A stretch of DNA of 64,000 bases, from the NCBI GenBank assembly GCA_017454295.1, contig JAFTDF010000042.1, positions 484 to 64,483 on the forward strand, read 5' to 3'. Positions 34,681-51,473 of the stretch are shown here, one piece after another. The position numbers and the translations under genes are program-made. The stretch is from Bacilli bacterium (lineage in GTDB: Bacteria > Bacillota_I > Bacilli_A > RFN20 > CAG-826). Position 1 is the first letter of the stretch. Each line of letters begins with the position of its first letter. Below the pieces are notes generated by a model, which saw only the letters and a list, made by a program, of their open reading frames with translations, was not told the DNA's origin and made no database searches.

Positions 34681-34681
34681 C

Positions 34682-35539: not shown

Positions 35540-35542
35540 AAA

Positions 35543-35637
35543 AAGCCAGTTGCCTCATTTCCGGCAGCTGGCTGTCTAGAATCGTAGACCCTTTAGCTTT
35601 GCGTCGCCAGATCACTCTGGTTTTGCTTTTGTCGGCT
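35543..35637 (-). promoter_or_regulatory. c-di-GMP-I (GEMM-I)-like riboswitch, copy 2
   Basis: The minus strand reads GACAAAAGCAAAACC-AGA-GTGA-TCT-GGCGACGCAAAGC-TAAAGGGTCTA-CGATTC-TAGACAGCCAGCTGCC. A hairpin follows (CCAGCTGCC/GGCAACTGG) with CTTTTT directly before the ATG at 35539. Confidence 0.8.
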
Positions 35638-35732
35638 CTATTATATAGAGGCCGTTTCAAAAGGGAAACCTTTTTTCTCTCTTCCGTTTCGAAAAGGAAG
35701 CGTTCATCGAAAAAAACCATTGCTTTTTTGAA

Positions 35733-35763
35733 AGCAAAACCGCCCGTATGTGAAGGGCGGTTT
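35733..35763 (-). terminator. Rho-independent terminator ending the 14 kb fibre operon
   Basis: The minus strand reads AAACCGCCCTTCACATACGGGCGGTTTTGCT, immediately after the stop at 35767. Confidence 0.8.
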
Positions 35764-35766
35764 GAT

Positions 35767-38700
35767 TTATTTCCCGACGTTATTGTTGCTGCGGATCGCC
35801 TCGATGAGGGCGGGGCGTTCTAACGGCATGTAGAAGTAGTAACCTTGGAGTTCCAAATTGGGATTAATCTTGTAGAGAAGGTCGCTTTGGTCGCGGTTTT
35901 CAACACCGACGACGGCGATGTCGATATTCTTCTCCTTGGCCTCAGTTAGCAAGGACGTGATGGCTTTTAGACGGCTTTGGTCAGTATCGATATTGTGGAC
36001 GACATTACGGCCTACCTTGATCTTTTCGAAGCCCAGTTTTGCCACGTCATCGAGGGAAATGAAGCGGCCCGAATATTGATCGATAACCATGTGGACCTTG
36101 TGCTTCTTTAGCATCGGCGCGGCTGCTTCAAAGGCTTCCAAATGTTTGGAGACGTCGCCTTCTGCGATTTCGAAAGCAAGGAAGCCTTCGGGCAGTTTGC
36201 TCTTCTTGAGGAATTCGTCGAAGTCGGCGTCGAAGGATTGGTCGGCAAACAAAGAGACATCGGTATTCAAAGCCAGCTGCTTGAAGCCAAACATCTTTAA
36301 GGTCGCCGGACCAACGGCCTGGTAGAAGGAATCAACGTAACGGAGCAAAGCACGGGTAATGAGCGGGATCTTGCCGTTTTCCTCAGCCACGCGGATGAGT
36401 TCTTCCGGGTTGAAGACGATATGACGATATTCGTCTTGGATACGGAGCAAGATTTCGGCGCCGAAGATGCGATGCTCGCGACCTTGCACCATCGGTTGAA
36501 GCGAGACGCGGAAGGTCTCTTTCCCGAACTGCTCCTCGATGACTTGGAGGATGAATTCGCGACGGGATGCCGGACGGACGTAGTCGGTATCGTCGAAATA
36601 GATGTAGTCGCTGCCTTTATCGCGTTTACGGGTATTCAAATCGCGGGCCACGTGACGGAAGAAATCGTTGGCCCCGGCATAACCCTGCGGATAGTTCATC
36701 GGCATGTAGGAGATGTTCAAATCGTAGGTATCTCCGCCTTCATAGGTAAGGCCCTTGGTGAAACGGAAAATCTCTTCGCACCGGTTGATCAAATCGACTT
36801 GGCCAACCGCGGGGAACAAGATCCCGAGGGTCTTCTCGTCATAACGGAAGAAGCCATCGTATTGGGGACCGAGCTTCTTCAAGGCATCGATGAAGGCTCG
36901 CTGAATCAATAGGAACCCTTCCGAGCCGAAGCGGCGGATGAGCTGGTCGTGATTGTCTAAGCGCAGCATCAAGACATAGCCGTTATCGCCCACGAGGTAA
37001 TGGTTGCTGACTTCTTCGAATAAGGTTGGGAAGGAGGCAATGAGCAATTCGGGATCGTAACGGTTGGCGTAATCCTCTTCGGTACGGACGCGGCGTAAGA
37101 GCATCGTCTGACGCTGACCGCGTTGGACGTCGATCGTTAAAGAAGTCACGAATTGATGCTTCCCCACCTGCGAGGGTTTCTTGTTGCCCGTTTTTAACGG
37201 ACAATCGGCGCAGGGGCTGTTTAAACCATAAAGGCATTGGTAACAGGCCTTGCCTTCCTCCAAACCACGGAAGATGCGCTTCATACCCTTGGAGTAGGAA
37301 AGGATACGATACGTGCCTTTTTCGATTTGGTAGGACACCGAATCGGTCGCGGCGAGCAAGGCATCGTAACGGCGATGGGCTTCAAGCATATCCTCGATGA
37401 GCACGCCTTGGACGTAAGAGGAGGAAATGTGATAGCAAGCCGCGGACAGCGATTCTTGGAGATAACTGTCCAAGGAAGCGTTCTTGAAACGGTTGATGAA
37501 ATAGACGGCCCCATAGGTCTTGCCATCTTTCTTTAATGCGTAGAAGAAGCCGGATTGGATGTTTAATTTATCCAAGACCTTCCCCAGTTGCGGCCCCACA
37601 TGGTTCCGCGAGGAGAAATAGAAGGAATGATCGGGGTCATGGGAAGCGTCAAGCGCGGGGATGAAATCGGGGTCGACCAATTGGCCTACTTGGATCGTTT
37701 CCTCAGGACCCACATGGTCTTTGAAGATATAACCGCCGCGTTCTTGGTCATAGGCGATGATGCCCGCCATTTCGAAATTGAGCTCGCTGCAAAGGGCTTG
37801 TAACACGCGGGCCATGCCGGCACGGACATCTTGTTTGTTATCGTTGGTGGACTCAATCGAAGAGAGGTTGAACAGAATCTTCGACATTTGATTCAGGTGC
37901 ATCGCGTTTTTGCCGATATTGGCATCGCCGAGGTTATGGAGGCGGTTAGGCAAATACATCTGGGCGATCTTGCCTTGGCGGCGCGCATAACGAAGGTCGG
38001 GGAACATCTCGTGGACGGCGGAGAAGGGATAGGCGACGATGGCGTAATGGGGCACCAGTGGCACATAGCCTTCCACGTTGTGTTTGGAGATGGCCATCTT
38101 GCTGAGCAGACCATCGAAGCAATGCCGTAAGGCGGCGAAGGAATCGACGCGAGGCAAATAGATGTAGAACGAATTCCCGTCCTCCGGCAACAAGACGAGG
38201 AAATTCTCATAATGACGGAATTGCTCCACGATCATTTGGTGGATGGCGTGACGTTCGGCATCGCTTAGGCCATTGTTGCCCAAATCGTAATAGATATTGG
38301 CCAAAGCATTCCGGAAGTTCATCGAGGAGGCGATGATGTTGCTTAATTGCTTCTCAAAGCTCTCCAACGTCGCGACATGGTCAAAGCCTTCCACCCATTC
38401 GAGGAAGAAGGAATCGTAATTCAAATCGCCGAAAACCAAGGTGGCGTTATTCAAAGAGGATTTCACGGCATGGACGGCATCGTTTAACCGGGCGAATTCC
38501 ACCACTTTGTCGCCGCCGGGATAATCTTCGAGCCCGGCTTCGCCCGCGTTGATATGGGCGAGGTTGCGCTCCGTGACGCCAAACAAGGAATCGATATAAC
38601 GCTTCCGCAAGCCGCGGACGCTTAAAACCCCGATGATGAAGAAAGCGGCGATAAAGACGATGACGAAGATGATCATGGAAATCAAAACCGCCAAGTTCTG

Positions 38701-38826
38701 CGTCTTGCCATAGACCGTCCCCATCCCGACGATTAACGCCCCTAAGGCGATAAAGGCGGAAAGATAGGCGAGGATGGTGACGATGAACATCCGATGGAGG
38801 GTCTTTTTCTTTCGTGGTTTGGCCAT
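35767..38826 (-). CDS. Membrane protein with GAF-like, degenerate GGDEF-like and degenerate EAL domains (candidate c-di-GMP receptor)
   Basis: Two N-terminal TM segments. A GGDEF-like block has RYDEKT in place of RYGGDEF. The EAL domain keeps QP...EILLR, N and EIAE. However, it has DQYSGR for DDFGxG, KVG for KxD and VGVEN for EGVE. It also contains a CxxC-x8-CxxC motif (CYQCLYGLNSPCADC). Confidence 0.7.
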   Translation of the reverse strand: MAKPRKKKTLHRMFIVTILAYLSAFIALGALIVGMGTVYGKTQNLAVLISMIIFVIVFIAAFFIIGVLSVRGLRKRYIDSLFGVTERNLAHINAGEAGLEDYPGGDKVVEFARLNDAVHAVKSSLNNATLVFGDLNYDSFFLEWVEGFDHVATLESFEKQLSNIIASSMNFRNALANIYYDLGNNGLSDAERHAIHQMIVEQFRHYENFLVLLPEDGNSFYIYLPRVDSFAALRHCFDGLLSKMAISKHNVEGYVPLVPHYAIVAYPFSAVHEMFPDLRYARRQGKIAQMYLPNRLHNLGDANIGKNAMHLNQMSKILFNLSSIESTNDNKQDVRAGMARVLQALCSELNFEMAGIIAYDQERGGYIFKDHVGPEETIQVGQLVDPDFIPALDASHDPDHSFYFSSRNHVGPQLGKVLDKLNIQSGFFYALKKDGKTYGAVYFINRFKNASLDSYLQESLSAACYHISSSYVQGVLIEDMLEAHRRYDALLAATDSVSYQIEKGTYRILSYSKGMKRIFRGLEEGKACYQCLYGLNSPCADCPLKTGNKKPSQVGKHQFVTSLTIDVQRGQRQTMLLRRVRTEEDYANRYDPELLIASFPTLFEEVSNHYLVGDNGYVLMLRLDNHDQLIRRFGSEGFLLIQRAFIDALKKLGPQYDGFFRYDEKTLGILFPAVGQVDLINRCEEIFRFTKGLTYEGGDTYDLNISYMPMNYPQGYAGANDFFRHVARDLNTRKRDKGSDYIYFDDTDYVRPASRREFILQVIEEQFGKETFRVSLQPMVQGREHRIFGAEILLRIQDEYRHIVFNPEELIRVAEENGKIPLITRALLRYVDSFYQAVGPATLKMFGFKQLALNTDVSLFADQSFDADFDEFLKKSKLPEGFLAFEIAEGDVSKHLEAFEAAAPMLKKHKVHMVIDQYSGRFISLDDVAKLGFEKIKVGRNVVHNIDTDQSRLKAITSLLTEAKEKNIDIAVVGVENRDQSDLLYKINPNLELQGYYFYMPLERPALIEAIRSNNNVGK

Positions 38827-38828
38827 GG

Positions 38829-39566
38829 TTATTTCCCTCCTAGTAAGTCGGCGCGGCCGATGTCGCCGATGGTGGTGACGATGCCTTTGCCCAAATCGAT
38901 ATAATGCCGCAAGGTGGTGGCATAATCTTCCACCGTATAGGCCTTATCCAAGAAACGGGAGACCGTTTTCACGCCCACAAAGGGCACATGTCCCAAATAG
39001 CAGGCCGTGGCGATGCCACCCATATTGGTTTCCAAGACCACACGTTCCTTCGCCCCATAGAGGAATTCGCCCGAGGTCATTTCCTTGAGCTGTTCCATTT
39101 TGGTGAAGGCGACGTTGGTGGAAACGTAATTGCATACCGCATAATGGCCGATGCCCCGCTTCTCAAAGGAATCGGAGAGATAGCCCACGATATCCTCTTG
39201 GCAGAGGAAGTAAGGCGGGAAGCCCGGGATTTGGCCCATTCTCGTGCCGGCTTCGGCGGAAAGATCGACGTCGCCACTAAAGACACGGCCGGAAATGGCG
39301 ATATCCCCGGCTTTGAAGTCTTTGGAGAAAGCCGTGCAACGGCCCACCCCGATGACGAGGATCGCCAAATACTTCTGGATTAAACCCAGCATGATGGCGG
39401 AGGAAAGATAATTGGTGAACATCCCTTCGACGAGGCAGACTTCCTGATTGAAGATGTTCCCAAGGGTCAACTTGTAACGGTCTAAATAGGTTTCGGTGTG
39501 CTTCCCGGTCATGATGGAGTCGAAATAGAGGACGTCATCATGGGTGGCGCCGACGATCATAATCAT
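38829..39566 (-). CDS. Divergent MTA/SAH-nucleosidase-like (PNP_UDP_1 fold) protein
   Basis: By eye it aligns with MtnN (IVGATHDDV.., VLETNMGGIATAC.., VGVKTVSRFLD). The catalytic Asp of the SD motif appears replaced (VSR), and the GSAGG loop is GRCTA. Confidence 0.5.
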   Translation of the reverse strand: MIMIVGATHDDVLYFDSIMTGKHTETYLDRYKLTLGNIFNQEVCLVEGMFTNYLSSAIMLGLIQKYLAILVIGVGRCTAFSKDFKAGDIAISGRVFSGDVDLSAEAGTRMGQIPGFPPYFLCQEDIVGYLSDSFEKRGIGHYAVCNYVSTNVAFTKMEQLKEMTSGEFLYGAKERVVLETNMGGIATACYLGHVPFVGVKTVSRFLDKAYTVEDYATTLRHYIDLGKGIVTTIGDIGRADLLGGK

Positions 39567-41104
39567 CGCTTGGTTCCTCCTTCAAACGGGTTGTCTCTTA
39601 AGAAGGCCTCATATTCCTCTTTGGGGAGGGCCTTCGAATAATAGAAGCCTTGGATGGTGTCGCATTTGGCGCGGCGGAGGAATTCAACTTCCTCCTTGCT
39701 ATCGACGCCTTCGGCGATGACTTCACGGTCGGAAGCATGGCAAAGGCCGATGATCAATTTGACGATGTCTTTGGCACGGGGGTCCTCACGCATGGCATCG
39801 ATGAAGGATTTATCGACTTTCACCGCGTCGAAGGGGATTTTGCGGAGATTGATGATGTTGGAATAGCCGATGCCGAAGTCATCCATCAAGACACGCATCC
39901 CCCGTTCCCGGAGCTTCTTGATAATGGACACGGACAGGAACTGATTGGCTTGGGAGGTGGTTTCGGTGATTTCGATTTCGATGAGCGAAGGATCGATGCC
40001 ATAGGAATCGATGGTGTTCACGATCATCGAAAGGAAGTCCATGGAGTAGAACTCATAGAGGGAGAAGTTGACCGATACCGGCAATAAACGGCGCCCTTTA
40101 CGTTTGGCTTCGGCCAAATCCTCGCAGGTCTTTTTGAAGACGTAGATATCGAGCTCATGGAGCAATCCGGCGGCATCCATGCGCTCGATGAAACGCGCCG
40201 GTGGGACGATACCATATTTGGGCGAATGCCAACGGATCAAGGCTTCGGCGGAAATGAATTCTTTCTTCTCCAAGGAGAACTTAGGTTGGTAATAGACAAC
40301 GAATTCCTTGTCATCGAAGGCTTTGACGATTTCGGCGATATCGTCGCTGGAAGCGGCGGAGCGAAGTTTCTCGTCATAGTAAGAGAAGGTTTCGAAATTG
40401 CGCTCGGCATTCTCTTTGGCCAGCATCGCATCGTCGATCATCGGCATCAGCGATTCGGTGGGTCCGGCGTGGCGAATCCCAAAGAAAGGCTGGACATAGA
40501 TGTGATAATGGCGTTGATCCAAGATCGCATAGATGCGGTCGCGAATGGTGACGACGAGGTCTTCGACTTGGCCTTGGTCGCGGTCAAAGGCATAGACGAC
40601 GAAATTGCCACGGTCGAAGCAGAATAAGTGGCGACGGCGGTCATAGAGCCCGCTTTTGGCGGAGAATAAATCCGACAAGGCGAAAGCGATGCGGGAGTTT
40701 AAATCGTTGATTTCCTCGTTGGAGGTGGCGGCGCGGGAAGAAGAGAAGGAAGAAGCCGAGAAGACAATCAGGAATTGACTCTTCCCTGCGAAGCGGAAGC
40801 TCCGCCGCCAAAGATTGGCGTGCTGCTCAAAGGCATAAAGGTTATAGAACGCGGTCTTTTGCCCCAAGGAATAGAGGTTTTCCGTCTGTAACGAAGAAAC
40901 GACGGTACGTTGATTGAAATAGATGGTGATGCAGCGTAAGAAGAGCCCGGCAAAGAAGGTCAGGTAGAAAATCGCCCCGATCATCAAACCGTGGTTGCCA
41001 TCCATCACGCCGGTGGCAATCAAAATGATCGATACGACGATGGCCGCGACATAAAGACCACCGGTAATGATGGAGTAGAGGAAATAACGGCGTTTGGATT
41101 TCAT
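39563..41104 (-). CDS. Membrane-anchored degenerate-GGDEF / canonical EAL protein (c-di-GMP phosphodiesterase)
   Basis: YYQPKF...AEALIRW, VSVNFS, EIEITETT, LMDDFGIGYSNI, VKVDKSF, IAEGVDSKEE and IQGFYYSKALP are all present. The upstream GGDEF-like block reads FDRGNF. Confidence 0.85.
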   Translation of the reverse strand: MKSKRRYFLYSIITGGLYVAAIVVSIILIATGVMDGNHGLMIGAIFYLTFFAGLFLRCITIYFNQRTVVSSLQTENLYSLGQKTAFYNLYAFEQHANLWRRSFRFAGKSQFLIVFSASSFSSSRAATSNEEINDLNSRIAFALSDLFSAKSGLYDRRRHLFCFDRGNFVVYAFDRDQGQVEDLVVTIRDRIYAILDQRHYHIYVQPFFGIRHAGPTESLMPMIDDAMLAKENAERNFETFSYYDEKLRSAASSDDIAEIVKAFDDKEFVVYYQPKFSLEKKEFISAEALIRWHSPKYGIVPPARFIERMDAAGLLHELDIYVFKKTCEDLAEAKRKGRRLLPVSVNFSLYEFYSMDFLSMIVNTIDSYGIDPSLIEIEITETTSQANQFLSVSIIKKLRERGMRVLMDDFGIGYSNIINLRKIPFDAVKVDKSFIDAMREDPRAKDIVKLIIGLCHASDREVIAEGVDSKEEVEFLRRAKCDTIQGFYYSKALPKEEYEAFLRDNPFEGGTKR

Positions 41105-41925
41105 TGCTTCTCCTCCGGTTGTTCTTCGGGTTTCGGCGCGGCTTTCTTGCTGAGCATCTCTTGGAGCATCTCGTCTTTCAGGCGTTTTAATTCGGCCTCG
41201 GAAAGCCCTTCTAAAGAGACGTCTTTCTTTGGGGCTTCCGCCGTGACTTCTTCCGCGGGCTCTTTCATGGCTTTAAAGATATCCATGACGGAAACGATGA
41301 CCAAATAGAAGGCGGGGATCAAAAGCAAGACGAATAAGCCCCAAGGCGAGGCGACAAAGCCAAAGACGGCGCCTAAGAAATCGCTATGGAGCACCACTTT
41401 ACCCAAGATAAAGCGTTCCGTGAAGGCCTGATATTGGCCCGGGTGGGCCGCTTTGCCTTCGGGGTTAATCCCAGCCACGATAAAGGTATAACGCCCTTGG
41501 CCGGAAGCTTTGCTTTGGTCGATATGGATTTCCTGGACGCGGTGGGTCATCGGATAACCGGTGGGAATGGTCCGGTCATAAAGGCTCTTGTCTTCGGGGA
41601 CGGTATATTCGGTGGTATCGGTGCAGCGGTCCATGAAGGTGATGTCGATGGTTTCGCCCCGGAGAAAGGCCTGATAGAGCTTCTCCGGATCCTCGCGATA
41701 GGTGATGATGGCGGAGTTGACTTTGTATTCGGGTTCCATGGAGTTGGTCCGAACCACGAAATTGCCCACACCGAAGCGAATCGGCTGACTGAAATATTCG
41801 TCCTTATGGACCATGGATTCGATCTGCCCTGCCCCCACGGCGAGGAAAAGGACGCCGACGATGCCGACGAGGACCCATTCGATAATGCGACGGGCTTTAG
41901 ATTTCTCTTTCTTCACCCGTTTCAT
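41101..41925 (-). CDS. sipW: Archaeal/ER-type signal peptidase I (SipW-like, S26B) with a C-terminal TM and charged tail
   Basis: N-terminal TM, catalytic-Ser box VRTNSMEPEY, His box GYPMTHRVQEI, a second TM near aa 190-220, then a K/E/P-rich tail. Confidence 0.8.
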   Translation of the reverse strand: MKRVKKEKSKARRIIEWVLVGIVGVLFLAVGAGQIESMVHKDEYFSQPIRFGVGNFVVRTNSMEPEYKVNSAIITYREDPEKLYQAFLRGETIDITFMDRCTDTTEYTVPEDKSLYDRTIPTGYPMTHRVQEIHIDQSKASGQGRYTFIVAGINPEGKAAHPGQYQAFTERFILGKVVLHSDFLGAVFGFVASPWGLFVLLLIPAFYLVIVSVMDIFKAMKEPAEEVTAEAPKKDVSLEGLSEAELKRLKDEMLQEMLSKKAAPKPEEQPEEKQ

Positions 41926-44045
41926 AATTTGACGACCTTCCCGCCGAGTTTGGCTTTGATGTCATGGGCTAAGTTGTAGTCATCGAAGACCTTGGCATCG
42001 TCTTTGTCTTCGCTATAGGTGCCTTCTTCGACGTAATAGCCCATTAAGGTTTTCACGATAAAGGTGCCGGGGATGGGTTCCCGTTCCATTTTCGGTTTAC
42101 GTTGTTTCACCGGCACGAATTCTTCTTCGTCCTCATCATCGTATTTGGGAGATTCGTAGTTCTCAGCCTCCGCATCCGTTTGATGGTCAAAGACCGGCAC
42201 GAAAGCGGGCGAAGCTTCTTCCTTCTCCTCCACGGCGGCTTCTTCGATAGGTTCCTCGGGAAGAGCTTCTTCGATCAAAGGCTCGGAGATTTCCGGTTCG
42301 GGGGTCTCGGGTTCAGCCAAGACTGCAGGAGTTTCGTCGATCTCGGGCTCTTTCGATTTCCGTTTCCTACCTTTTTTCGCGGCAGGTTTGGAGGCTTTTG
42401 GCTTTTCTACGGGTGCGATGGGCACTTCTTCTTGGGCGACGGGTCCTTGCTCCTGAGGAACCACTTCTTCAGAGGCCCTTGCTTCAGGAGCCGAATCTTT
42501 GGGAGCCGAATCTTTGGGAGCGACTTCTTCCGGAACGAAAGCTTCGGATTCAGAAACCTCGGGGGCTTCTTCTGCCGTTTCTACAGAGGCGGGAATATAT
42601 TCCTCGGGTTCAGGCTGCTGTTCTTCGAGAATCGGTTCTTCTTGTTTTTGCTTTTTGCCCTTTTTCGAAACGGGTTGTTCTTCGTCCCAAGACTGGTTCC
42701 AAGTGGCTTTGGCCGCGGCGACGAGTTCGGCACGGACGCGGTTGAGCAAATCGGTTTCCTCTTGTTGGATGACCTTGGCTTCTTTGGCGGCAAGACGTTT
42801 CCGTTCGAATTCGCGTTTTTCCAAAATGGCTTCGGCTTGCTTTTCGAATTGCCGTTCCATCTTGGCGTTGCGGTGACGGAGTTGCTCGAGTTCTTTCTCG
42901 AATTCACGCAGATCACGCTTCTCTTCGTATTCTTCCGCGTAATATTCCTTCTCTTTCCGCGTGGGGTGTAAGGGCAAATCCTTGTTGAGGAGGCGATTGA
43001 GGTATTCCATATACCCTTCGTCGGCGCGGACGAAATGGATGGGGCCTTTCAAATAAGGCCCATAGATAAAGGCCTCGTCCTCGGCATGGGTGAGGATCTT
43101 GGGTTTATATTCCTTGACGGCTCCTTTGGTCACCGTCGATTTATCCTTGCCTTGCAAAGCAAGATAAGAACCAAGCAGCGAGAAATTGAGCTCCGCGAGT
43201 TCTTTATCCGTGAAAACGGAATAATCCTCGTTCATTCGGTAAGTGATACCCAACGTGGAATAGGTCTCCAAATAGCGATAGACCTCATAGCAATGATGGT
43301 ATTTGGGGTTCTTACGGATGATGTTGGTTTGGAGAATGGGGTTGCGGACGTTGTTCTCGGTTTTGAATTTCCGCATAAACGGCGAGTTGTAGTAATACAA
43401 AATGTAATTACGGATCTCGGCGATACGTTGGAAATAGGTGGAGTTGAGTTGGCTCACCTCGGTGTGGGAAACGGATTTGACTTTGACTTTGGTTTCGATG
43501 GAAATCTCGGAATCCCCGATTTGGGAATGGTTTTTCAAATAGAGGACTTCCTCATCGTGGAGTTTGGCGAACTTCAACGCGAATTCATAACGTTTCTCGA
43601 CGAAGAGCATCAATTTACGAATGAAGGTCGCGATAAAACGGTTCTCGTAGGTGAAGAGGTTATCCTCGTTGGAGAAATTTAAGATCTTCGAAGGGATGAC
43701 GTTGCCGTATTCATCGACTTCTTTGATGTATTGGGTATGGGAGGCCAGATGTTGAACGGATTCCCCCGTGATTTTTTTCGCCAATTCGATCGGGGTGATG
43801 TCGGAGACCGCATGCGTGACCGAACGGGGCGCTTTGATGATATCGCCTAAATCGAAGATGACGCCTTCGATTTTATCGATCCAACGGGCATCGAAGGAGG
43901 AAGTCTCAACACGGTCGAGGCGCAAATACGAGTTTTTGCCGCGAGAAAGCCCCGCGTAGAGTTCCGCTTCATCCTCATCTTTGATGATGGAGCGCATCTT
44001 CGCGGTATATTTGGCGTAGAGTTTTTTATCGCGGCTTTCTTCCAT
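41922..44045 (-). CDS. McrC/DUF2357-like partner protein with a coiled coil and a long acidic P/E-rich region; no recognisable nuclease motif
   Basis: The segment NLFTYENRFIATFIRKLMLFVEKRY resembles the (T/P)-x-ENR-f-hk-x-fL motif of McrC/DUF2357 N-domains. No signal peptide or TM. aa 360-640 are coiled coil plus low complexity. A small C-terminal globular domain follows. Overlaps both neighbouring genes. Confidence 0.45.
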   Translation of the reverse strand: MEESRDKKLYAKYTAKMRSIIKDEDEAELYAGLSRGKNSYLRLDRVETSSFDARWIDKIEGVIFDLGDIIKAPRSVTHAVSDITPIELAKKITGESVQHLASHTQYIKEVDEYGNVIPSKILNFSNEDNLFTYENRFIATFIRKLMLFVEKRYEFALKFAKLHDEEVLYLKNHSQIGDSEISIETKVKVKSVSHTEVSQLNSTYFQRIAEIRNYILYYYNSPFMRKFKTENNVRNPILQTNIIRKNPKYHHCYEVYRYLETYSTLGITYRMNEDYSVFTDKELAELNFSLLGSYLALQGKDKSTVTKGAVKEYKPKILTHAEDEAFIYGPYLKGPIHFVRADEGYMEYLNRLLNKDLPLHPTRKEKEYYAEEYEEKRDLREFEKELEQLRHRNAKMERQFEKQAEAILEKREFERKRLAAKEAKVIQQEETDLLNRVRAELVAAAKATWNQSWDEEQPVSKKGKKQKQEEPILEEQQPEPEEYIPASVETAEEAPEVSESEAFVPEEVAPKDSAPKDSAPEARASEEVVPQEQGPVAQEEVPIAPVEKPKASKPAAKKGRKRKSKEPEIDETPAVLAEPETPEPEISEPLIEEALPEEPIEEAAVEEKEEASPAFVPVFDHQTDAEAENYESPKYDDEDEEEFVPVKQRKPKMEREPIPGTFIVKTLMGYYVEEGTYSEDKDDAKVFDDYNLAHDIKAKLGGKVVKL
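42487..42516. repeat. Perfect 15-bp tandem duplication inside the 707-aa gene
   Basis: GGAGCCGAATCTTTG occurs twice, followed by the partial copy GGAGC. It encodes APKDS-APKDS in frame. Confidence 0.9.
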
Positions 44046-45562
44046 TAGTTGTTCTTAATCAAGTTTTCGATATAGGCGTGGGACATGGGGAAGGTGCCTT
44101 TGCCATAGAGTTTATCCAAATAAGCATCGAGTTGCTTCAACTCGTCTTTTAAGAAGGCGATGTTGAGGGATTCGAACTTCTTCAAGATCTTGCTGGCAAA
44201 GATGAAATCGAAGCCATCGACTTCCTTGCCGCCACAGGCGACGAAGGTCGGGATGAAGGATTCGAGCTGCTTCAAGATACGGTTACCGAAGGCGAGTTTG
44301 AATTTCTTGATGACGAAGTTATCGAGGTCTTCGAATTTCTGGGTCATATTCTCGGAAATCGGGAAGTTGCGGATGGCATCGTCATAGAGACTGCGGAGTT
44401 GGAAATAGGGAATCGGCATCGGCTCTTGCTGGGCGGCCTGGAACGGGCGGCCCTTATCGTCGAAGAAGAGGGAGATGGCACGGTCATAGACCTTATCGGA
44501 GATGGTGAAGGTGGAGTCGTCGTTGTTGGCGGTGCCGAAGAAGACGACGTTTTGGGGAATGGCGAGTTTGCCTTCTTTGAGGTTGGCGGGGTCGCTTGGT
44601 AAGGTGTTGGGGATCAAGTCGATCTGCCAGGCGGATGGATCGCGCATTTCCATGATGGATAGGAATTCGGCGAAATAGTATTCGATACGGGCCAAGTTCA
44701 TTTCATCGAGGGTGATGATGTCGAGGTCTTGGCGGTAGCCGCAGGTATAGAGGGCTTTCAAGAATTCGGATTCGTTGAATTTCTTGGTGAATTCGTTGTA
44801 GTAACCTAACAATTCGGAACGGTCTTTCCAAGAGGGCTGGACCGGGATGATGGCGGAGTCGAATCCGAAGAACTTACCAAGGGCATAGGCAAGCGAGGTT
44901 TTACCGGTACCGGAGATCCCTTCGAGGATGATTAATTTCGAAGTGGCCATACCGGCGAACAATTGACGGATGGTTTCGATCTTGTAATACAAGCCCAATT
45001 GGCTGGCGGCATAGTTGCGGAAGGAGTTGCAGAGTTCTTCTAGGGACAAGCCCTGATGCATGGGGATATCCATGTTGACGCCGCGATAAGCGTTATCGAC
45101 GGAAATCAGCTTGGGGAAGCGGGTACCACTGGTATCGGCGGCCTCTTCAGCAGCCGCGGCTTCTTCGCCCGGCTTTAAGCCCATATAGCCGACTTTGAGG
45201 TTGAGGATCTTGTCGCGTTCACGGGTTGCTTCATAGAGTTCGTAGTTGAGGCGTTCGACCTGGCGGCGAAGTTCGTCTTTGTCGAGCTCGCGGCGGACGA
45301 AACGGATATATTTCCGAAGCAGGATGAAGAGCAAGAATCCCAGTCCGCCGATGAGGGCGATGAAGAGAATCAAGAACAACACCCAGAAGAACCAGCCCCA
45401 AAAGCCGAAGTCTTTGGAAGCGACGGAAAGGTAAGAGCCATAGTCATTGAAGTTCTGGGGCACATCGGACCAAGGGGAGGCGAAAGCCTTCTGGAACCAT
45501 CTCCCGATATCGGAGAAGACCCGGATGAGCAATTGACGTAGATATTCGAAGTAAGCGGTCAT
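44045..45562 (-). CDS. Membrane-anchored McrB-like AAA+ (AAA_5) NTPase
   Basis: One TM (FWGWFFWVLFLILFIALIGGLGFLLFILL), then a coiled coil. Walker A is GISGTGKTS and Walker B plus the McrB-type helix is IITLDEMNLARIEYYFAEFLSIME. The NxxD-type motif is FFGTANNDDSTF..DKVYDRA. There is no N-terminal DNA-binding domain. Confidence 0.75.
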   Translation of the reverse strand: MTAYFEYLRQLLIRVFSDIGRWFQKAFASPWSDVPQNFNDYGSYLSVASKDFGFWGWFFWVLFLILFIALIGGLGFLLFILLRKYIRFVRRELDKDELRRQVERLNYELYEATRERDKILNLKVGYMGLKPGEEAAAAEEAADTSGTRFPKLISVDNAYRGVNMDIPMHQGLSLEELCNSFRNYAASQLGLYYKIETIRQLFAGMATSKLIILEGISGTGKTSLAYALGKFFGFDSAIIPVQPSWKDRSELLGYYNEFTKKFNESEFLKALYTCGYRQDLDIITLDEMNLARIEYYFAEFLSIMEMRDPSAWQIDLIPNTLPSDPANLKEGKLAIPQNVVFFGTANNDDSTFTISDKVYDRAISLFFDDKGRPFQAAQQEPMPIPYFQLRSLYDDAIRNFPISENMTQKFEDLDNFVIKKFKLAFGNRILKQLESFIPTFVACGGKEVDGFDFIFASKILKKFESLNIAFLKDELKQLDAYLDKLYGKGTFPMSHAYIENLIKNN

Positions 45563-46614
45563 ATTTCCATCTCCCTTAAGATCTTGAATTGCAGATTGGC
45601 TTGGAAGGAGCCACCCATATTGGCATTGACGCAGTCGTGGTCCCAGCCCTCTAAGTAGATGCTGATTTGCAGCGGCTTCGGTTGGTTCCGGTGGCAGGCG
45701 ACGTAGAAGGGGTTCACCTGGATGTCGTTGCTGCCTAGTTCGTCGAAGGTATAGGCGGTTTCTTGTTTGATCACGAGTCCCTTCTTAGTGGAAGCCTCTA
45801 AGTCAAAGGGGTGCGTCCCATAGGAATGCCCGGCATTGAAGGAGGTGAGTTCGCCATCGGCTTCGGTGGCCACCTCGAGGCGTTCCCCATGGACGATGGC
45901 GTCGTAATCGTTATATTCGCCATAGAGGATTTCCTTTTGGAATCCCGTTCCGCCTTCCATGTAGATGTCATAGAAGCCATCGCGGTCGTTATCGAGGACC
46001 CCGCCATAATAGGTGATGCCCTCGCGATGGGGATCGATGATGACATAATTGTCATCCTCAAAGTCATAAATGGAAACCCGAATCGCCTTCTCCAAGGTGT
46101 TAAGCCGTTCGACCCGTTCCTCATAGGTGTAGGTCGATAGCATGTTCCTCGCGGTGATCATGTTCGCTTCCACGTAGGCGCGCACGAAACAAAAAGCGGG
46201 ATCGATGCCAACGTAAACGTTGTCGTCGGCGCAAAGCCATAACGTCTGCGAGTAATGGCCATAGCTGACGGCATCGGGTCCGAAGGGGATACCCTTGTCG
46301 GAAGTGATCAAATTGGCGTATTCGTAAAACTTCGGCGCGGTCTTGCCATCCCTCCAGCGGGATTCGAACATGGTCGAGACCGGGGCGAAGCGCACCACTT
46401 GATCGAGTTCTTCGGCGGCGAGTTTGTCCTTCATCTTCGCCACGTCCTCGGTGGTGCCGATTTTCAAGCCTTTTTCGCCCGCCATCTCGATTTCGAGGGT
46501 GCGGACGGCCAGATTGGTCGCGTTGTTATACCAGGCCAAAGACGAGGCAAAGGATGCCCCGGATAAGGCCGTAAGGCCGATAAGGGAAGCAAGTAGCAAA
46601 CGCGATCGTTTCAT
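45559..46614 (-). CDS. Secreted TasA-like fibre-family paralogue (about 351 aa)
   Basis: The signal ...LSGASFASSLAWYNN carries the motif. C-terminal motif LQISIYLEGWDHDCVNANMGGSFQANLQFKI. ATG at 46614 is preferred over the GTG at 46626. Confidence 0.65.
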   Translation of the reverse strand: MKRSRLLLASLIGLTALSGASFASSLAWYNNATNLAVRTLEIEMAGEKGLKIGTTEDVAKMKDKLAAEELDQVVRFAPVSTMFESRWRDGKTAPKFYEYANLITSDKGIPFGPDAVSYGHYSQTLWLCADDNVYVGIDPAFCFVRAYVEANMITARNMLSTYTYEERVERLNTLEKAIRVSIYDFEDDNYVIIDPHREGITYYGGVLDNDRDGFYDIYMEGGTGFQKEILYGEYNDYDAIVHGERLEVATEADGELTSFNAGHSYGTHPFDLEASTKKGLVIKQETAYTFDELGSNDIQVNPFYVACHRNQPKPLQISIYLEGWDHDCVNANMGGSFQANLQFKILREMEI

Positions 46615-46615
46615 A

Positions 46616-47782
46616 CTAGAGGGCACGGTTGATCTGGAATTGGAGCCCTAGATTGAATTGGTGGCTGATCTCGTCATCGATGACGGCATGGTCCCAACCT
46701 TCGAGATAAACGGACATCGTCAGGTGGGCCAAAGCGGCATCGTCGTTAGCGGTCACGCATAAAGGCGTACCACCGGTGAGGTAGCCGGCCCCGTTATCGG
46801 TCGGGGCAATGGATTTGAGCGTCTCGTAATGGGCCAGTTCAGGCGTGACAAACGAGGCAAAATCGGACGTGGTATAACCATCGACGCCTTCTTTGTGTTT
46901 GCCATAGAAGGTGGAGGCGTTGGTGCGTCCGGGGTTGACGTAATAATCATTGACGTCATCTAGTCCGGTATCGGCGCCGAAATGCGTCAAATGATTGGCG
47001 GGGTTATTATCGGGGTGAGCCGCCGTCTTGGCATAACGGCCATAGACGATCTCTTCGGAGGCATCGTAGTCATAGAACCCGTCGTTATTCAAATCGAGCA
47101 GGCCCGCGACCTTGGTGTCGCCGGCGAGGGCTTCTTTCCCGACCCCGGGATTGAGGATTAATTTGGTGGCCCCATCGAAATGGAGGCGTAAGGCCCGATA
47201 GATTTGGTGGGAGGCATCCCCGCCGGTGGTGGCGAGGGCGTCGGTGATCCAGATGTTCTCGTTCTTGGCGTAGATGTTGCCCGTGGCACCGGTATGGATG
47301 ACGCGGAAGACGAAGTCGATTTTGCAATAGGCCGTCTTGCCGGCATCGTAGATTTCGGTGCTATAAGCCATCGGGGCTTTCTTTAACGCGAGGTTATCCC
47401 CATTGGCATAGCCATAGGAAGACACCGGCGTTAATTCATTGGTCGCATACCCTTGCCGCGCTAAATAGGCTTGGATGGCGACCGAGTTGAGGCCGGAACC
47501 GGCCTTCGCCCAATAGATATCTTCTCCATTGATCTCTTCGTGGGTCAGCCCGAGGTTGACGACATGGTGTTGGGCGTCGATCACGTCTTGGGTGAAGTCC
47601 ACATCGGAAACGAGTCCGATCTGAAGCTGTTCCGACTGCGCGACAGAGGTGCCTTGATAAGACATCGTGACACGGGTGGACGAGGCATACCACGCGACCG
47701 TACCGGAGATGGCTCCGGCGAAAGAGGCAGTCAACGCTAAAACCATCGCAGCTGAGAAGATATGAGCTTTTCTTAGTTTCAT
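46616..47782 (-). CDS. Secreted TasA-like fibre-family paralogue (388 aa)
   Basis: Signal ...SFAGAISGTVAWYASS. C-terminal motif LTMSVYLEGWDHAVIDDEISHQFNLGLQFQI. Confidence 0.65.
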   Translation of the reverse strand: MKLRKAHIFSAAMVLALTASFAGAISGTVAWYASSTRVTMSYQGTSVAQSEQLQIGLVSDVDFTQDVIDAQHHVVNLGLTHEEINGEDIYWAKAGSGLNSVAIQAYLARQGYATNELTPVSSYGYANGDNLALKKAPMAYSTEIYDAGKTAYCKIDFVFRVIHTGATGNIYAKNENIWITDALATTGGDASHQIYRALRLHFDGATKLILNPGVGKEALAGDTKVAGLLDLNNDGFYDYDASEEIVYGRYAKTAAHPDNNPANHLTHFGADTGLDDVNDYYVNPGRTNASTFYGKHKEGVDGYTTSDFASFVTPELAHYETLKSIAPTDNGAGYLTGGTPLCVTANDDAALAHLTMSVYLEGWDHAVIDDEISHQFNLGLQFQINRAL

Positions 47783-47919: not shown

Positions 47920-48978
47920 TTATTCAGCGTCGGTATGGGCTTCAGCGGTGAAGCGGATACCAACGTTGAACTTGGCACCAACGGTCTTGGTTTCGTCCCA
48001 AATGGACTTAACATCAACGGTGTCGGAACCAGAAGTCGCAGTTTTGGTGCTGAGTTCGGTCCAGCCTTCAAGATAAATCTTGAGGTTCACATAGAGGTTC
48101 TTGGTGGCGGAAGTGGAACCGATTTCCTTGCCCACGATAGCGGTCGCGGTGGAATCGTCGGCGACACCGACGACGTTGCTGGTGACTTTGGTGTTGGCAG
48201 TCGCAACAGCGGTCTTCTCGTTGACGCCATAGAGCACATCGGCACGGCCAGTGCTAAAGTCATAACCTTCAGTTTGATCGATGATACCGTCGTTGTTGAG
48301 GTCGAGCTTGCCATACACCTTGACGGGGTCGGCGCTCTTGGCAAAAGTGGCGTAGTCGGCAAAGACGGGATTGCCGGAATCGGGGGCCGTAACGGCGGAA
48401 ACGCCAACTCGAAGAGCGGAGGAGACATCAATTTTGCCAGAGGGGTTGTCGGTGGCGGCCTGAAGCGTCACGTCAGAGACGTAGATCTTCTTCGCAAGAT
48501 AAGAATCGGTGTCCGCACCAGTCACGTCTTTTACACGAATTTCAAGAGGAATCACAATGTAATCGACTTCGGCGCTAGCTTCTCCCCAAGAAGTCATCTC
48601 GGCGTATTGATAAATCGGGTTCTTGTAGAGCGTAGCGGCAACTGCACCAGCGGCAAGTTCGCCGGAGGTAACCGGGCGAAGTTCGTTGGTAGCAGCGGTA
48701 CGGTTGGCGCCGCCATTAGCGGTGGTCGCGGCCAAATAAGTGGCAATGTCGGTAGAGGTTAAATCCTGCTTCCATTCGCCAAAGCCATCGGTTTTGGTGG
48801 AGCGGATACGGATTTGGATGCTTTCAGAGCAGTGAGCAGAGGCACCAGAATAGGCGACGGTGCTACGGGTGGAGTATTGATACCAAGCAACGGTACCGGA
48901 GATGGAACCAGCGATGGCGGCACCCATGGCGATGGCCATAGAAGCGATCGTGGCTTTCTTTAAGGTGTTAGTTTTCAT
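47920..48978 (-). CDS. Secreted TasA-like fibre-family paralogue, putative major subunit (352 aa)
   Basis: Signal ...GAAIAGSISGTVAWYQYS. C-terminal motif LYVNLKIYLEGWTEL...GAKFNVGIRFTAE. Codon usage (GGT/ACC/GCT/CGT rich) looks biased towards high expression. Followed by a hairpin. Confidence 0.65.
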   Translation of the reverse strand: MKTNTLKKATIASMAIAMGAAIAGSISGTVAWYQYSTRSTVAYSGASAHCSESIQIRIRSTKTDGFGEWKQDLTSTDIATYLAATTANGGANRTAATNELRPVTSGELAAGAVAATLYKNPIYQYAEMTSWGEASAEVDYIVIPLEIRVKDVTGADTDSYLAKKIYVSDVTLQAATDNPSGKIDVSSALRVGVSAVTAPDSGNPVFADYATFAKSADPVKVYGKLDLNNDGIIDQTEGYDFSTGRADVLYGVNEKTAVATANTKVTSNVVGVADDSTATAIVGKEIGSTSATKNLYVNLKIYLEGWTELSTKTATSGSDTVDVKSIWDETKTVGAKFNVGIRFTAEAHTDAE

Positions 48979-49789
48979 AAGCGTTTATTTCAACTCCTAA
49001 TTTGATTGTGGCTCCAACAGGAGGAGTCATGTCGTCTCTGGATTGACGGTCTTCACCTTCAAGCCAGGCGACGAGGGTGTACCTGCGGATGTCGTCTGCG
49101 CGGAACCCGGGCACAGTGTAACGGGCTACGGTCTCGCCGGAGAGGAAGAGCTCCGCTAAAGGGTGGTCCTCGTCTTCGGTCCGATCATAAGAAGCCTCGG
49201 CAATGAACTCGCGACGGGTTCTGGTCCCGTCGGGGAGGTAATTGTATTCGGCGGCTTCTTTGGCGTAGACCTTGTAATTGTGCTCGGTACTGTTGGCCTC
49301 GTTATCGAAGATCATGACCCTGAGGGTGTCATCGAGCTTCCGCTCGGTGCCATCATCGGTGGGTTTGCTCTCCGTGATGTTAAACGAGATGTCGTACTTC
49401 GCGGTCTTCTTACCGACGTTTTTCACGTAGAACGTATATTTGAAATAATTCAAAGTCGTCCAGGCGTTCTTATCGTCGTAATTGGCCCCGAGGGTATAAG
49501 GGGAATCCTCGTTATCCAAAACCTCTCCAGAGGGAAGGGCATGGAACGTGGTCTCCTCATACGGTCGTAAATCGTCGATACGAAGGAGCGACTCTGGTTT
49601 TTCAAACGAAGCCTTTTCGCTTAGCGACAACCCCACTTCACCGTTATTGACGGAGACCGTGAATGTCCCAACGAATCGGCCAAGGAAAGCAATGATGCTT
49701 AAAGACACCAGCCCCGACGTGGAGGCACCCACGACGATCCAGGCGGCGATCTTCCTTTTCCGTTTTCTCACTAAGTCAAGTTCGTACAT
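48968..49789 (-). CDS. Membrane-anchored TasA-like family member with a degenerate signal motif (273 aa)
   Basis: The TM is followed by GRFVGTFTVSV, compared with GGTFAWF in its paralogues. It shares the C-terminal motif YTLVAWLEGEDRQ...ATIKLGVEINAYE. First gene after riboswitch copy 3. Confidence 0.6.
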   Translation of the reverse strand: MYELDLVRKRKRKIAAWIVVGASTSGLVSLSIIAFLGRFVGTFTVSVNNGEVGLSLSEKASFEKPESLLRIDDLRPYEETTFHALPSGEVLDNEDSPYTLGANYDDKNAWTTLNYFKYTFYVKNVGKKTAKYDISFNITESKPTDDGTERKLDDTLRVMIFDNEANSTEHNYKVYAKEAAEYNYLPDGTRTRREFIAEASYDRTEDEDHPLAELFLSGETVARYTVPGFRADDIRRYTLVAWLEGEDRQSRDDMTPPVGATIKLGVEINAYEN

Positions 49790-50076: not shown

Positions 50077-50460
50077 CTACTTGTTATCGGAGTTCAGATC
50101 CTCGAGAAGTTGCTTCCGGAGGGCTTCCTTCTGCTCATCCGAGAGATCGTTGACTTTGATCGGCTCTTTCTTCGTGGATTTCCGCACATAGATGACTAAG
50201 CCGATGATATTGCCGGCCAGCAACACAAATAGCGGAATGACATAGGAGACGAGATAGACCGTGGGGTTATTTTGGAGATAACCGATATAGCCTTCGGCGG
50301 TAATGATCTCGGCCGCGGTTTTACCAACGGTGTTGGCCAACATAATAATGTTGAATACGGCCAGCCCCAAAGTCGCGATGATATCGATGACAAGAAGGGT
50401 AATGAGCAATGGTTTTTTAGCTTTGTTCATACGGGAAACTACCGATTTTTCGGCTTTCAT
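50077..50460 (-). CDS. Small membrane protein (about 3 TM) with a charged C-terminal tail
   Basis: Hydrophobic segments. Co-directional, 50 nt downstream of the 320-aa fibre-family gene. Confidence 0.55.
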   Translation of the reverse strand: MKAEKSVVSRMNKAKKPLLITLLVIDIIATLGLAVFNIIMLANTVGKTAAEIITAEGYIGYLQNNPTVYLVSYVIPLFVLLAGNIIGLVIYVRKSTKKEPIKVNDLSDEQKEALRKQLLEDLNSDNK

Positions 50461-50510: not shown

Positions 50511-51473
50511 TTAGGACGCCTTGTATTCACGAGTATAGAACTTCATAGTCGCAGCGACTTTGTTGAAGTGCTCGGCCGTCGAAACAATGGAAGGATCGGT
50601 GCCTTCAAACCAAACCACAACAGTGAAGGTGAGCGCAGTTTGAGTGGCATCTTCAGTGGCTTTCCCAAATTTACCTAAGCAAGTGTATTCCGCAGAATCT
50701 CCAGTAGAATAATCTGTGGTAAGCGCGGTTCCTTCGCCATGCTTCGCTTCCATAGTATTTGAAGCCATGATGGTCTTCCCGGTATAGGTTTTCCCGCCGG
50801 TATAATTGGTAGCGATAGTGTACGCTGTGGCATCGTCAACATAATGAGGCTGGTTTGCGGGGGTTGCGTCATTGGTCGCGCGTTTAGGAGCCCAAACGCG
50901 CTTGTTTGCGACGCTGTTGGCAGTGGGTGTCGCACCAACAAACGCCACGCGGAAACCTTTAATAGTGTCCTCTACGGCAGACTCTTCCTGGGCAGCAACC
51001 GCGCTGTTGGGATCGAAGAACAGCAGAGCTGCGCCTTCGGTGTTGAATTTATAGGTAAAGGTCATTTGCCAAGAAACGGCCCACCACATATCTTTGCCGG
51101 TTTCAAAGTCATCTTTCGCCTTCCAAGCGCTGGCGGCATCTCCAGAAGCCACAACTCGACGAACGCCAGAATTGTTTTCACTAGAGGCGGTATAAATTGT
51201 GCCGGCCTCATGGTCATAAGAAGCGTGAGTAAGAACATCTCCTGTGGCCATGACAAAGGTGTGACTGTCTCCGTTGTCAGTGGTGGTTCCGCCAATTGCG
51301 TTGCTCATGGTAACGGACAAGTCGCCACCCATTGGTTTGACTTCGAAAACGCTTCCCTCAACGGTTGCGGAAGTCACGGACGAGAACCAAGCAACGGTTC
51401 CACCGACGGATCCAGCAGCGGCAAGCAATAAGACGCCAAGAGCAGGGACAACGAGTAATGATTTTTTCTTCAT
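50511..51473 (-). CDS. Secreted TasA-like fibre-family paralogue (320 aa), second putative structural subunit
   Basis: Signal MKKKSLLVVPALGVLLLAAAGSVGGTVAWFSS. C-terminal motif LTFTVVVWFEGTDPSIVSTAEHFNKVAATMKFYT. Strong RBS AAGGAG. It has its own riboswitch-like leader. Confidence 0.65.
   Translation of the reverse strand: MKKKSLLVVPALGVLLLAAAGSVGGTVAWFSSVTSATVEGSVFEVKPMGGDLSVTMSNAIGGTTTDNGDSHTFVMATGDVLTHASYDHEAGTIYTASSENNSGVRRVVASGDAASAWKAKDDFETGKDMWWAVSWQMTFTYKFNTEGAALLFFDPNSAVAAQEESAVEDTIKGFRVAFVGATPTANSVANKRVWAPKRATNDATPANQPHYVDDATAYTIATNYTGGKTYTGKTIMASNTMEAKHGEGTALTTDYSTGDSAEYTCLGKFGKATEDATQTALTFTVVVWFEGTDPSIVSTAEHFNKVAATMKFYTREYKAS

Follow-up and report, generated by a model that had tools for sequence, protein, structure and literature searches.

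Organization of the locus

The window analysed here, a stretch of 64,000 nucleotides (nt) from a Bacilli bacterium (contig JAFTDF010000042.1), carries two adjoining genes related to the McrBC family, the textbook GTP-driven restriction system. One encodes a 505-amino-acid (aa) McrB-like nucleoside triphosphatase (NTPase), and the other a 707-aa McrC-like partner. This GTPase/McrC-like pair is translationally coupled and co-inherited with a signal peptidase and with secreted proteins whose signals end in A-W-[FYI]. All numbering refers to the window, and every gene of the region lies on the minus strand (Table 1). An earlier note on this DNA had described three gene overlaps that chain the pair to its neighbours. 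They are real when read from the sequence, and the coupling reaches further along the operon: between 47782 and 35767, a stretch running from the 388-aa to the 1019-aa gene, the successive intergenic gaps are -11, -4, -1, -4, -4, -4 and +2 bases. GC content and GC skew are uniform over the locus, and the GC content matches that of the surroundings.

Table 1. Genes, protein regions and overlaps of the McrB/McrC-like locus, in window coordinates
Feature	Position	Strand	Basis or remark
505-aa membrane-anchored coiled-coil McrB-like NTPase, NxD branch	44045..45562	-	AAA_5, hhalign, PDC-M26A
Walker A GISGTGKT(S), residues 215-222	44897..44920	-	G215, G218, G220 and K221 invariant in 39 relatives
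Walker B D286-E287 in LDEMNLAR	44702..44707	-	D286 invariant, E287 nearly so; aligns with DEINRA of E. coli McrB
Signature loop N346-N-D348-D349	44516..44527	-	N346 and D348 invariant; position 349 is D, E or Q (39 relatives)
Hydrophobic transmembrane segment, 28 residues (56-83)	45314..45397	-	Hydropathy scan of relatives, sequence
707-aa McrC-like protein	41922..44045	-	TYENRF...FIRKL motif present
Conserved N-terminal region, residues 1-355	42981..44045	-	Alignments; DUF2357 by transitive homology
Long helix, predicted coiled coil, residues 370-455	42681..42938	-	AlphaFold2 pLDDT ~90; in most homologues
Acidic P/E-rich disordered linker, residues 456-652	42090..42680	-	pLDDT <50
Small C-terminal domain, residues ~657-707, beta-beta-beta-alpha-beta	41925..42077	-	pLDDT ~97
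ATGA overlap, 355-aa gene / 505-aa gene	45559-45562	-	Read from sequence
TAATG overlap, 505-aa gene / 707-aa gene	44043-44047	-	Read from sequence
ATGA overlap, 707-aa gene / peptidase gene	41922-41925	-	Read from sequence
274-aa SipW/Sec11-type signal peptidase	41101..41925	-	Ser box NSMEP, His box THRV
355-aa secreted protein, signal end LAWY	45559..46626	-	Stop overlaps GTPase start; beta-rich in AlphaFold2
388-aa secreted paralogue, signal end GTVAWY	46616..47782	-	Homologues in related loci
352-aa secreted paralogue, signal end GTVAWY	47920..48978	-	Homologues in related loci
p273, 273-aa membrane-anchored protein	48968..49789	-	33/33 loci; WLEGxDxDC module
127-aa small membrane protein	50077..50460	-	Homologues in Erysipelotrichaceae-type loci
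320-aa secreted protein, signal end GTVAWF	50511..51473	-	Sub-threshold TIGR04088 match
Upstream part of the cluster: 313-aa (GGTFAWF), 1024-aa (SMAWF) and 1308-aa BspA-type leucine-rich repeat (LRR) proteins	51736..59705	-	
Downstream part of the cluster: transmembrane EAL protein (513 aa), methylthioadenosine/S-adenosylhomocysteine (MTA/SAH) nucleosidase-like protein (245 aa), degenerate-GGDEF/EAL protein (1019 aa), AWF proteins (285 and 1292 aa)	30802..41104	-	

The membrane-anchored McrB-like GTPase

Judged by its motifs and profile matches, the 505-aa protein is an McrB-family NTPase whose Walker A, Walker B and NxD residues are intact. It passes the Pfam AAA_5 model narrowly (E=9e-5, 22.9 bits against a cut-off of 22), and the motifs quoted in the earlier note (GISGTGKTS, LDEMNLARIEYYFAEFLSIME and GTANNDDS) are present as given. 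A family profile built from 39 diverse relatives aligned by hhalign with the GTPase domain of E. coli McrB at 97.5% (E=7e-12, 240 columns), and this alignment spans Walker A, the VQ..SY..LGY segment, Walker B and the signature loop. The paired segments, with E. coli McrB first and the 505-aa family second, are GPPGVGKT/GISGTGKT, VQFHQSYSYEDFIQGY/VQPSWKDRSELLGYY, DEINRANLSKVFGEVMMLME/DEMNLARIEYYFAEFLSIME and GLMNTADRS/GTANNDDST. A sequence search of the PDB with the 505-aa protein returned no match. The McrB/AAA_5 hallmarks that the note had listed are thus borne out.

In one major branch of the McrB GTPases the NxxD signature has contracted to NxD, mostly with a D or E after it (Bell et al. 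2024, PMC11090510), and the signature loop of the 505-aa protein fits that definition. The ungapped alignment to E. coli NTAD also permits an NxxD reading through D349.

At the N-terminus, where McrB would have a DNA-reader domain, a single transmembrane (TM) helix and a coiled coil had been proposed, and both are found: the hydrophobic segment is followed by the basic sequence RKYIRFVRR and by a heptad-like helix at residues ~85-125. The hydrophobic N-terminal helix, which leads into a coiled coil, is accordingly predicted to anchor the protein in the membrane, and the positive-inside rule would place the NTPase domain in the cytoplasm. Homologues number at least 8000 proteins in a word-indexed search, and a search of clusters at 50% identity gave 8575 with E<=1e-3, 750 of them with E<=1e-30. 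The 150 best representatives share the NTPase module and differ at the N-terminus, which has one helix, two helices, four to six helices, or a basic tip and then 300-450 residues of soluble coiled coil. The relatives with soluble coiled coils resemble the architecture of CoCoNuT CnuB and the PADLOC candidate PDC-M26A. The 505-aa protein itself matches PDC-M26A at E=1e-41, over the NTPase core only.

An N-terminal TM helix and coiled coil resembling FtsB/DivIC could also mark a cell-division or envelope-remodelling factor. An N-terminal domain of this kind has been described as FtsB-homologous (Bell et al., PMC11090510), and one relative of the GTPase gave sub-threshold matches to FtsL_2 (E=0.015) and DivIC (E=0.22). 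These matches are insignificant, and the Pfam-type scan of the window protein did not return them. Relatives have 2 to 6 TM helices instead, and no division genes occur in the neighbourhoods, so that a division role is very improbable.

The McrC-like partner and the nuclease question

The 707-aa protein reads as an McrC N-terminal (DUF2357) module with three further parts behind it: a coiled coil, an acidic linker and a small domain. The protein itself has no match in Pfam, NCBIfam, PADLOC (E<=1) or the sequences of the PDB, and its assignment comes through its relatives. The first ~370 residues are conserved among 316 homologues, and the Pfam gathering score of DUF2357 is passed by 8 of 30 close homologues (best 34 bits against 23.3). 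The DUF2357-positive homologues that were re-scanned are 51-56% identical to the window protein, and more distant loci pass the threshold as well. DUF2357 is the "MN, McrC N-terminal domain" of Bell et al. (PMC11090510). With the TYENRF...FIRKL motif also in place, the likeness to McrC/DUF2357 proteins noted earlier is upheld.

An AlphaFold2 model, computed from an alignment of 111 sequences, is confidently folded over residues 1-320, with a predicted local distance difference test (pLDDT) mostly above 85. This N-domain holds a long beta-hairpin (163-192) that bears K171, E182, E184 and K186. The coiled coil, the acidic P/E stretch of about 200 aa and the small C-terminal domain that had been described from the sequence can all be seen in the model. 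The linker contains 48 E and 29 P in 197 residues and varies in length and sequence among homologues. The small C-terminal domain of ~50 aa is conserved in many close homologues and has no counterpart in Pfam or NCBIfam. In a Foldseek search it superposes on a 61-aa viral protein (A0A6G5YBM9; rank 40, probability 0.99, TM-score 0.63, root-mean-square deviation 2.5 Å).

Several related loci encode McrC-like proteins of other shapes. A Faecalibacillus sp. (L017:9017-15760) has a 2247-aa form whose C-terminal half consists of 15 Big_2 immunoglobulin-like repeats, with no transmembrane segment noticed between the McrC part and this half. Big_2 repeats are normally extracellular. Three other proteins (L062:11490-14759, L078:5940-8873 and L065:11573-14389) carry two copies of a repeat of ~120 aa that has no Pfam match and follows the pattern …RRSF.SRL…YY..IKNELLSY..VK…W..E.Y…GKTL.LYLALDP…. 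In five loci of Ruminococcus and Lachnospiraceae (L040, L047, L060, L066 and L081), McrC-like proteins of ~750 aa have a single hydrophobic segment around residue 610, and the partner may associate with the membrane in these clades although it is not fused to a peptidase.

The earlier note could find no PD-(D/E)xK motif in the 707-aa protein, and the check for a nuclease fold led to the same result by every route. Pfam at E<=1 on 30 McrC-like members yielded no nuclease family, Foldseek searches of the model against the PDB and BFVD recovered no nuclease fold, the McrC-like sequence profile found nothing in the PDB, and hhalign against E. coli McrC gave no similarity (1% probability). After the hairpin, the AlphaFold2 model contains no alpha-beta-beta-beta-alpha-beta unit. 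These negative results support the view that the protein has no recognisable nuclease.

One candidate for a hidden PD-(D/E)xK site was considered, made up of E134 in TYENRF, D/E164 and E184-T-K186 (residues 134-186; 43488-43647, minus strand). It was rejected as the working reading for its apparently wrong strand register and the lack of any family or fold match. The hairpin of the model has 14+14 residues with its turn at 177-178, a register that would pair 164 near 191 and not near 184; residues 164 and 184 lie at opposite ends, and K171 faces E184. The conserved E134, D/E164 and E184-T-K186 may instead form a surface that contacts the GTPase ring.

Conservation of the neighbourhood across genomes

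The co-occurrence of the pair with its neighbours was surveyed in 161 related loci (37-78% identity), comprising a first set of 81 and 80 from metagenomes. A scan of one genome per species gave 80 loci (42-78% identity) in Erysipelotrichaceae, unclassified Bacilli, Acholeplasmataceae, Izemoplasmatales, Ruminococcus, Oscillospiraceae, Lachnospiraceae and other Clostridia, and the metagenome scan was seeded with relatives of the GTPase that have 4-6 TM helices. A relative with 76% identity carries the same operon. Among the 77 first-set loci with enough 3' sequence, 75 have an McrC-like gene directly 3' of the GTPase gene, within a few tens of bases. The exceptions are L044 and L074, both from metagenome-assembled genomes of Tenericutes/Acholeplasmataceae, in which the GTPase gene is followed by genes for YAWF-signal proteins and not by an McrC-like gene.

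Neighbours were counted in the 33 first-set loci with at least 5 kb on each side. A p273 homologue is universal there. A hydrophobic signal ending in A-W/F-F/Y, typically x-T-Y-A-W-F-T, occurs in 27/33 loci, EAL proteins in 25/33, and a SipW-like peptidase with both the Ser and the His box in 21/33; over the whole first set, 42 of 81 loci have a peptidase with both boxes. Iterative hidden Markov model sets for SipW and TM127 were over-broad (131 open reading frames, ORFs, each) and were filtered on catalytic boxes, with the peptidase required to show both a Ser box SMxP and a His box HR[IVL]. De novo clustering of the neighbours revealed no further widely conserved family and no nuclease. Single-linkage clustering put the McrC-like proteins and the peptidases into one family; fusion ORFs and coiled-coil or low-complexity regions are the probable cause.

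In the metagenome set, 37 of the 80 loci are of the 1-3-TM type with the same neighbourhood, and the other 43 form a distinct 4-6-TM subtype on gut metagenome contigs (L083-L125; for example L105:4917-17015). Its gene order begins with at least two secreted proteins of ~230 aa with the signal end GFAAW[IV]I (28 loci). A SipW-like peptidase of ~335 aa lies directly upstream of the GTPase gene in 31 of the 43 loci, and a divergent McrC-like gene lies downstream of it in 42. An ABC ATPase, a permease, an exported protein of ~800 aa and a lipoprotein follow the McrC-like gene, and EAL genes were not detected in the neighbourhoods of this subtype. Since both neighbourhoods share them, the peptidase, the membrane GTPase, the McrC-like protein and the small secreted proteins with aromatic signal ends constitute the invariant core of the two subtypes.

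The earlier statement that the pair does not look like a restriction or defence module agrees with this survey: the pair is syntenic with secretion genes, and PADLOC models had no match among ten window neighbours. The chance arrival of a selfish or defensive McrBC cassette in a surface-protein operon would be in keeping with the general mobility of McrBC systems. The synteny refutes this and makes it barely credible, as the same arrangement recurs in 161 loci of many taxa, with overlaps and fusion. With more than 8000 homologues and conserved synteny, the two genes are a conserved pair far beyond chance. The survey supports a pair that is part of a secreted-protein/signal-peptidase operon and is not a stray defence module.

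The pair could still serve as an immune system, namely a membrane-associated CoCoNuT-type McrBC derivative that senses infection, for example by a phage that uses surface structures as receptor, and that responds without a nuclease, its effector being for example the peptidase, damage to the membrane or shedding of the receptor. In favour of this, the nearest matches of the GTPase domain are NxD McrB homologues with coiled coils and PDC-M26A, and the accessory domains of the McrC homologue are highly variable. Bell et al. (PMC11090510) place CoCoPALM, the class discussed below, beside the CoCoNuTs. Against an immune role, no nuclease, HEPN or other effector family was found in the pair or its neighbours, whereas the loss of the McrC nuclease in CoCoNuTs is reportedly always compensated by an adjacent nuclease (PMC11090510). 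Gene order is stable over families and orders of Firmicutes, with none of the patchy context of defence islands, and the GC content equals that of the surroundings. An immune function is therefore unlikely.

In two Ruminococcus genomes the link to the peptidase is covalent. Fusion ORFs (L056:9828-12824, 998 aa; L026:7353-10307, 984 aa) carry an McrC N-domain and then a coiled coil, with a hydrophobic segment leading into a SipW-type signal peptidase. The L056 ORF exceeds the thresholds of both DUF2357 (33.8 bits) and Peptidase_S26 (23.4 bits), and Peptidase_S26 reaches 24.0 bits in L026. The predicted topology is consistent, with the McrC part inside the cell and the peptidase domain outside. 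This fusion is the strongest single argument that the McrC-like subunit may work with the peptidase.

The same fusion would suit a GTP-dependent switch or checkpoint, in which the ring and the McrC-like protein gate the activity or localisation of the peptidase, or relay the status of cyclic di-guanosine monophosphate (c-di-GMP), and do no work on substrates; secreted proteins would then be processed only under biofilm conditions. Such a switch agrees with the constancy of the peptidase-GTPase-McrC triad even where the secreted-protein genes differ, and with the EAL and GGDEF genes found in most loci. It fits less well with McrB-family rings being processive NTPases, with family scans that detected no c-di-GMP-binding domain in the GTPase or the McrC-like protein, and with the missing EAL genes of the 4-6-TM neighbourhoods. 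A gating role is thus an improbable alternative, though one of some weight.

Secreted proteins and flanking genes

Eight proteins of the window have A-W-[FY] signal ends (313, 1024, 320, 352, 388, 355, 285 and 1292 aa). The most constant accessory gene, p273, shares with them only its last ~40 residues (WLEGxDxDC…G…F; hhalign 97.5%), and its product may be an anchor or base subunit. The 274-aa peptidase has weak NCBIfam matches to SipW and to the archaeal-type signal peptidase I. The earlier note had called the surroundings a fibre operon. The secreted proteins and the SipW-type peptidase are there, and the TasA-like fibre identity remained unconfirmed. By eye, G-T-x-A-W-[FY] resembles the signal end of TasA. 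The AlphaFold2 model of the 355-aa protein is beta-rich (pLDDT 85.8), with values below 50 at residues 17-31 and 34-42, the second stretch lying just past the LAWY end; these stretches hint at compatibility of the predicted structure with a donor-strand mechanism. A homology of this protein to TasA/camelysin was tried as a candidate and was not confirmed by Foldseek, PDB profile or hhalign.

Downstream of the peptidase, the gene order of 30802..41104 is repeated in L001 and in L003-L011. Within it, a PNP_UDP_1 gene (the MTA/SAH-nucleosidase-like one; 38829-39566, minus strand) is flanked on both sides by EAL genes; it overlaps the one upstream and is separated by 2 bases from the one downstream. 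Conservation of the EAL/PNP_UDP_1/EAL trio in 13 related loci points to a module for nucleotide-signal turnover that is joined to the operon. At the other end of the cluster, the gene for the 1308-aa BspA-type LRR surface protein shares a 4-base overlap with the 1024-aa AWF-signal gene (51736-58733, minus strand), and this adhesin-like gene is therefore co-transcribed with the cluster.

Proposed mechanism and its weighing

The class to which the locus very probably belongs has a name. CoCoPALM was named by Bell, ... Koonin (eLife 2024; PMC11090510), who proposed a link to pilus assembly as a hypothesis. The published definition consists of three sentences and defers a fuller treatment to a later paper (PMC11090510). 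It comprises an NxD McrB GTPase fused to a transmembrane and coiled-coil N-terminal domain, called FtsB-homologous, and an McrC homologue with DUF2357 and a coiled coil, with associated genes of the signal-peptidase family (PMC11090510). The assignment follows because the AAA_5 match, the hhalign alignment to McrB, the invariant motifs, the DUF2357 homologues and the TM segment with its coiled coil agree with this definition feature by feature. The finding is a rediscovery of a named class and is not new. A literature search found no later paper on CoCoPALM, and a search for PDC-M26 found no paper.

For the function of the pair, the best overall explanation, with about an even chance of being right, is a GTP-driven membrane platform that acts with the signal peptidase in the processing or assembly of secreted proteins. 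A more specific form, in which the pair is an assembly or processing motor, is put forward tentatively and by analogy. By comparison with E. coli McrBC, six GTPase subunits would form a ring, and the N-domain of the McrC-like protein would insert in its pore and stimulate GTP hydrolysis. Six helices and coiled coils would hold the ring at the cytoplasmic side of the membrane, and the GTP-driven conformational cycle of the ring would be coupled to the signal peptidase through the McrC-like subunit, covalently so in some Ruminococcus. Membrane-held AW[FY] precursors would be presented to the peptidase, processed, extracted or inserted into a growing surface polymer, with a division of labour like that of pilin, prepilin peptidase and assembly NTPase in type IV pili. 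In the 1-3-TM subtype, the flanking EAL and GGDEF proteins suggest that the process could be under c-di-GMP control.

Several observations weigh against such a motor. Insertion into the ring is assumed from family membership only, because a Foldseek search of the McrC-like N-domain model against the PDB matched no solved McrC. The D/E164...E184-x-K186 pattern leaves a small chance of a cryptic nuclease, and the GTPase domain has its nearest relatives in defence candidates, namely CoCoNuT-type proteins with coiled coils and PDC-M26A. The AW[FY] proteins belong to no Pfam or NCBIfam family, their profile found nothing in the PDB, and the 355-aa model had no Foldseek match in the PDB at E<=0.001. 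Comparison with TasA by hhalign was also null (0.2%), a weak test as it used a single template sequence, itself verified against PDB entry 8AUR. Only one of the eight N-termini, that of the 320-aa protein, matches TIGR04088, the model of the SipW-dependent signal peptide, and does so below threshold (E=0.014, 15.5 bits against a cut-off of 19); the seven others gave nothing. To our knowledge, the SipW-dependent fibres formed by TasA assemble without an NTPase, as the B. subtilis tapA-sipW-tasA system illustrates, so that a motor is not obviously needed, a point that also speaks for the switch. The searchable literature reports no experiments on CoCoPALM, and no filament has been seen.

The alternatives to the platform rank, by likelihood, as a gate on the peptidase, a residual immune function, a division-related role and a chance insertion. 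The boldest version of the platform reading is that CoCoPALM is an unrecognised assembly pathway for pili or surface polymers, in which an McrBC motor was exapted as a GTP-driven membrane machine physically coupled to a Sec11/SipW-type peptidase. This is possible but rather doubtful. If true, this pathway would occur widely, both in Firmicutes of the gut and rumen and in the wall-less Acholeplasmatales and Izemoplasmatales, and would exist in at least two subtypes: one with 1-3 TM helices, AWF proteins and c-di-GMP genes, the other with 4-6 TM helices, GFAAWI proteins and an ABC transporter. The McrBC family would thereby gain its first function outside defence, and fibre biogenesis a new NTP-dependent class. 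Were a surface structure built or processed in this way, an immune motor would have been strikingly recruited for cell-surface biogenesis.

Comparison with known systems

Type IV pili and Tad systems offer a likeness by function alone, and as an analogy only: their parts list also comprises subunits with a special signal, a dedicated peptidase, a hexameric membrane NTPase and an asymmetric partner. Their NTPase, peptidase and class of signal peptide are all unrelated to those of the window. The tapA-sipW-tasA operon of B. subtilis is closer in its secretion genes, as it also encodes a dedicated signal peptidase of the ER/archaeal type together with its secreted substrates. The signals of both end in small residues followed by aromatics (GGTFAWF in the 313-aa protein of the window and GGGTWAAF in TasA). 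The B. subtilis operon encodes no NTPase, whereas the window operon does, and the secreted proteins of the window have no detectable similarity to TasA in sequence or fold.

E. coli McrBC shares with the window pair a homologous NTPase domain, two genes with overlapping frames and a partner from the family of ring-activating N-domains. It differs in that McrB has an N-terminal DNA-reader domain and NxxD, where the window GTPase has a membrane anchor and NxD, and in that McrC has a PD-(D/E)xK nuclease, to which the window partner is dissimilar by hhalign and fold search. The CoCoNuTs (CnuB/CnuC) and PDC-M26 resemble the window pair in the NxD clade of the GTPase, in an NTPase module with 40-46% identity and in coiled coils on both partners; in CoCoNuTs, too, the nuclease of McrC is often lost. 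CoCoNuT GTPases are soluble, have long N-terminal coiled coils and always stand beside HEPN or other nucleases (PMC11090510). The window pair, unlike these, has a membrane anchor, no nuclease that was found, and secretion genes as neighbours. For PDC-M26, the correspondence is confined to the NTPase core of the A component, as the 707-aa partner matches no PADLOC model.

With CoCoPALM the agreement is close: the window has the NxD GTPase with its transmembrane and coiled-coil N-terminus, the DUF2357 partner with a coiled coil and the signal-peptidase gene, and nothing in it differs from the published definition, the likeness to FtsB being confined to sub-threshold matches in one relative. To this class the analysis adds the constant partners (p273, the A-W-[FYI]-signal proteins and the EAL proteins), the McrC-peptidase fusion, the 4-6-TM subtype with its ABC transporter, and the apparent absence of a nuclease. 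A large conserved branch of the McrBC family thus appears to have lost its nuclease and become membrane-bound, and its genes are linked to those of a signal peptidase and of the probable substrates of that peptidase. Its carriers are abundant gut and rumen Firmicutes and their wall-less relatives, little of whose adhesion and biofilm apparatus has been described. With a constant gene set, a Rosetta-stone fusion, a second subtype and a cultured carrier (Ruminococcus sp. FC2018), the survey makes the published CoCoPALM hypothesis testable.

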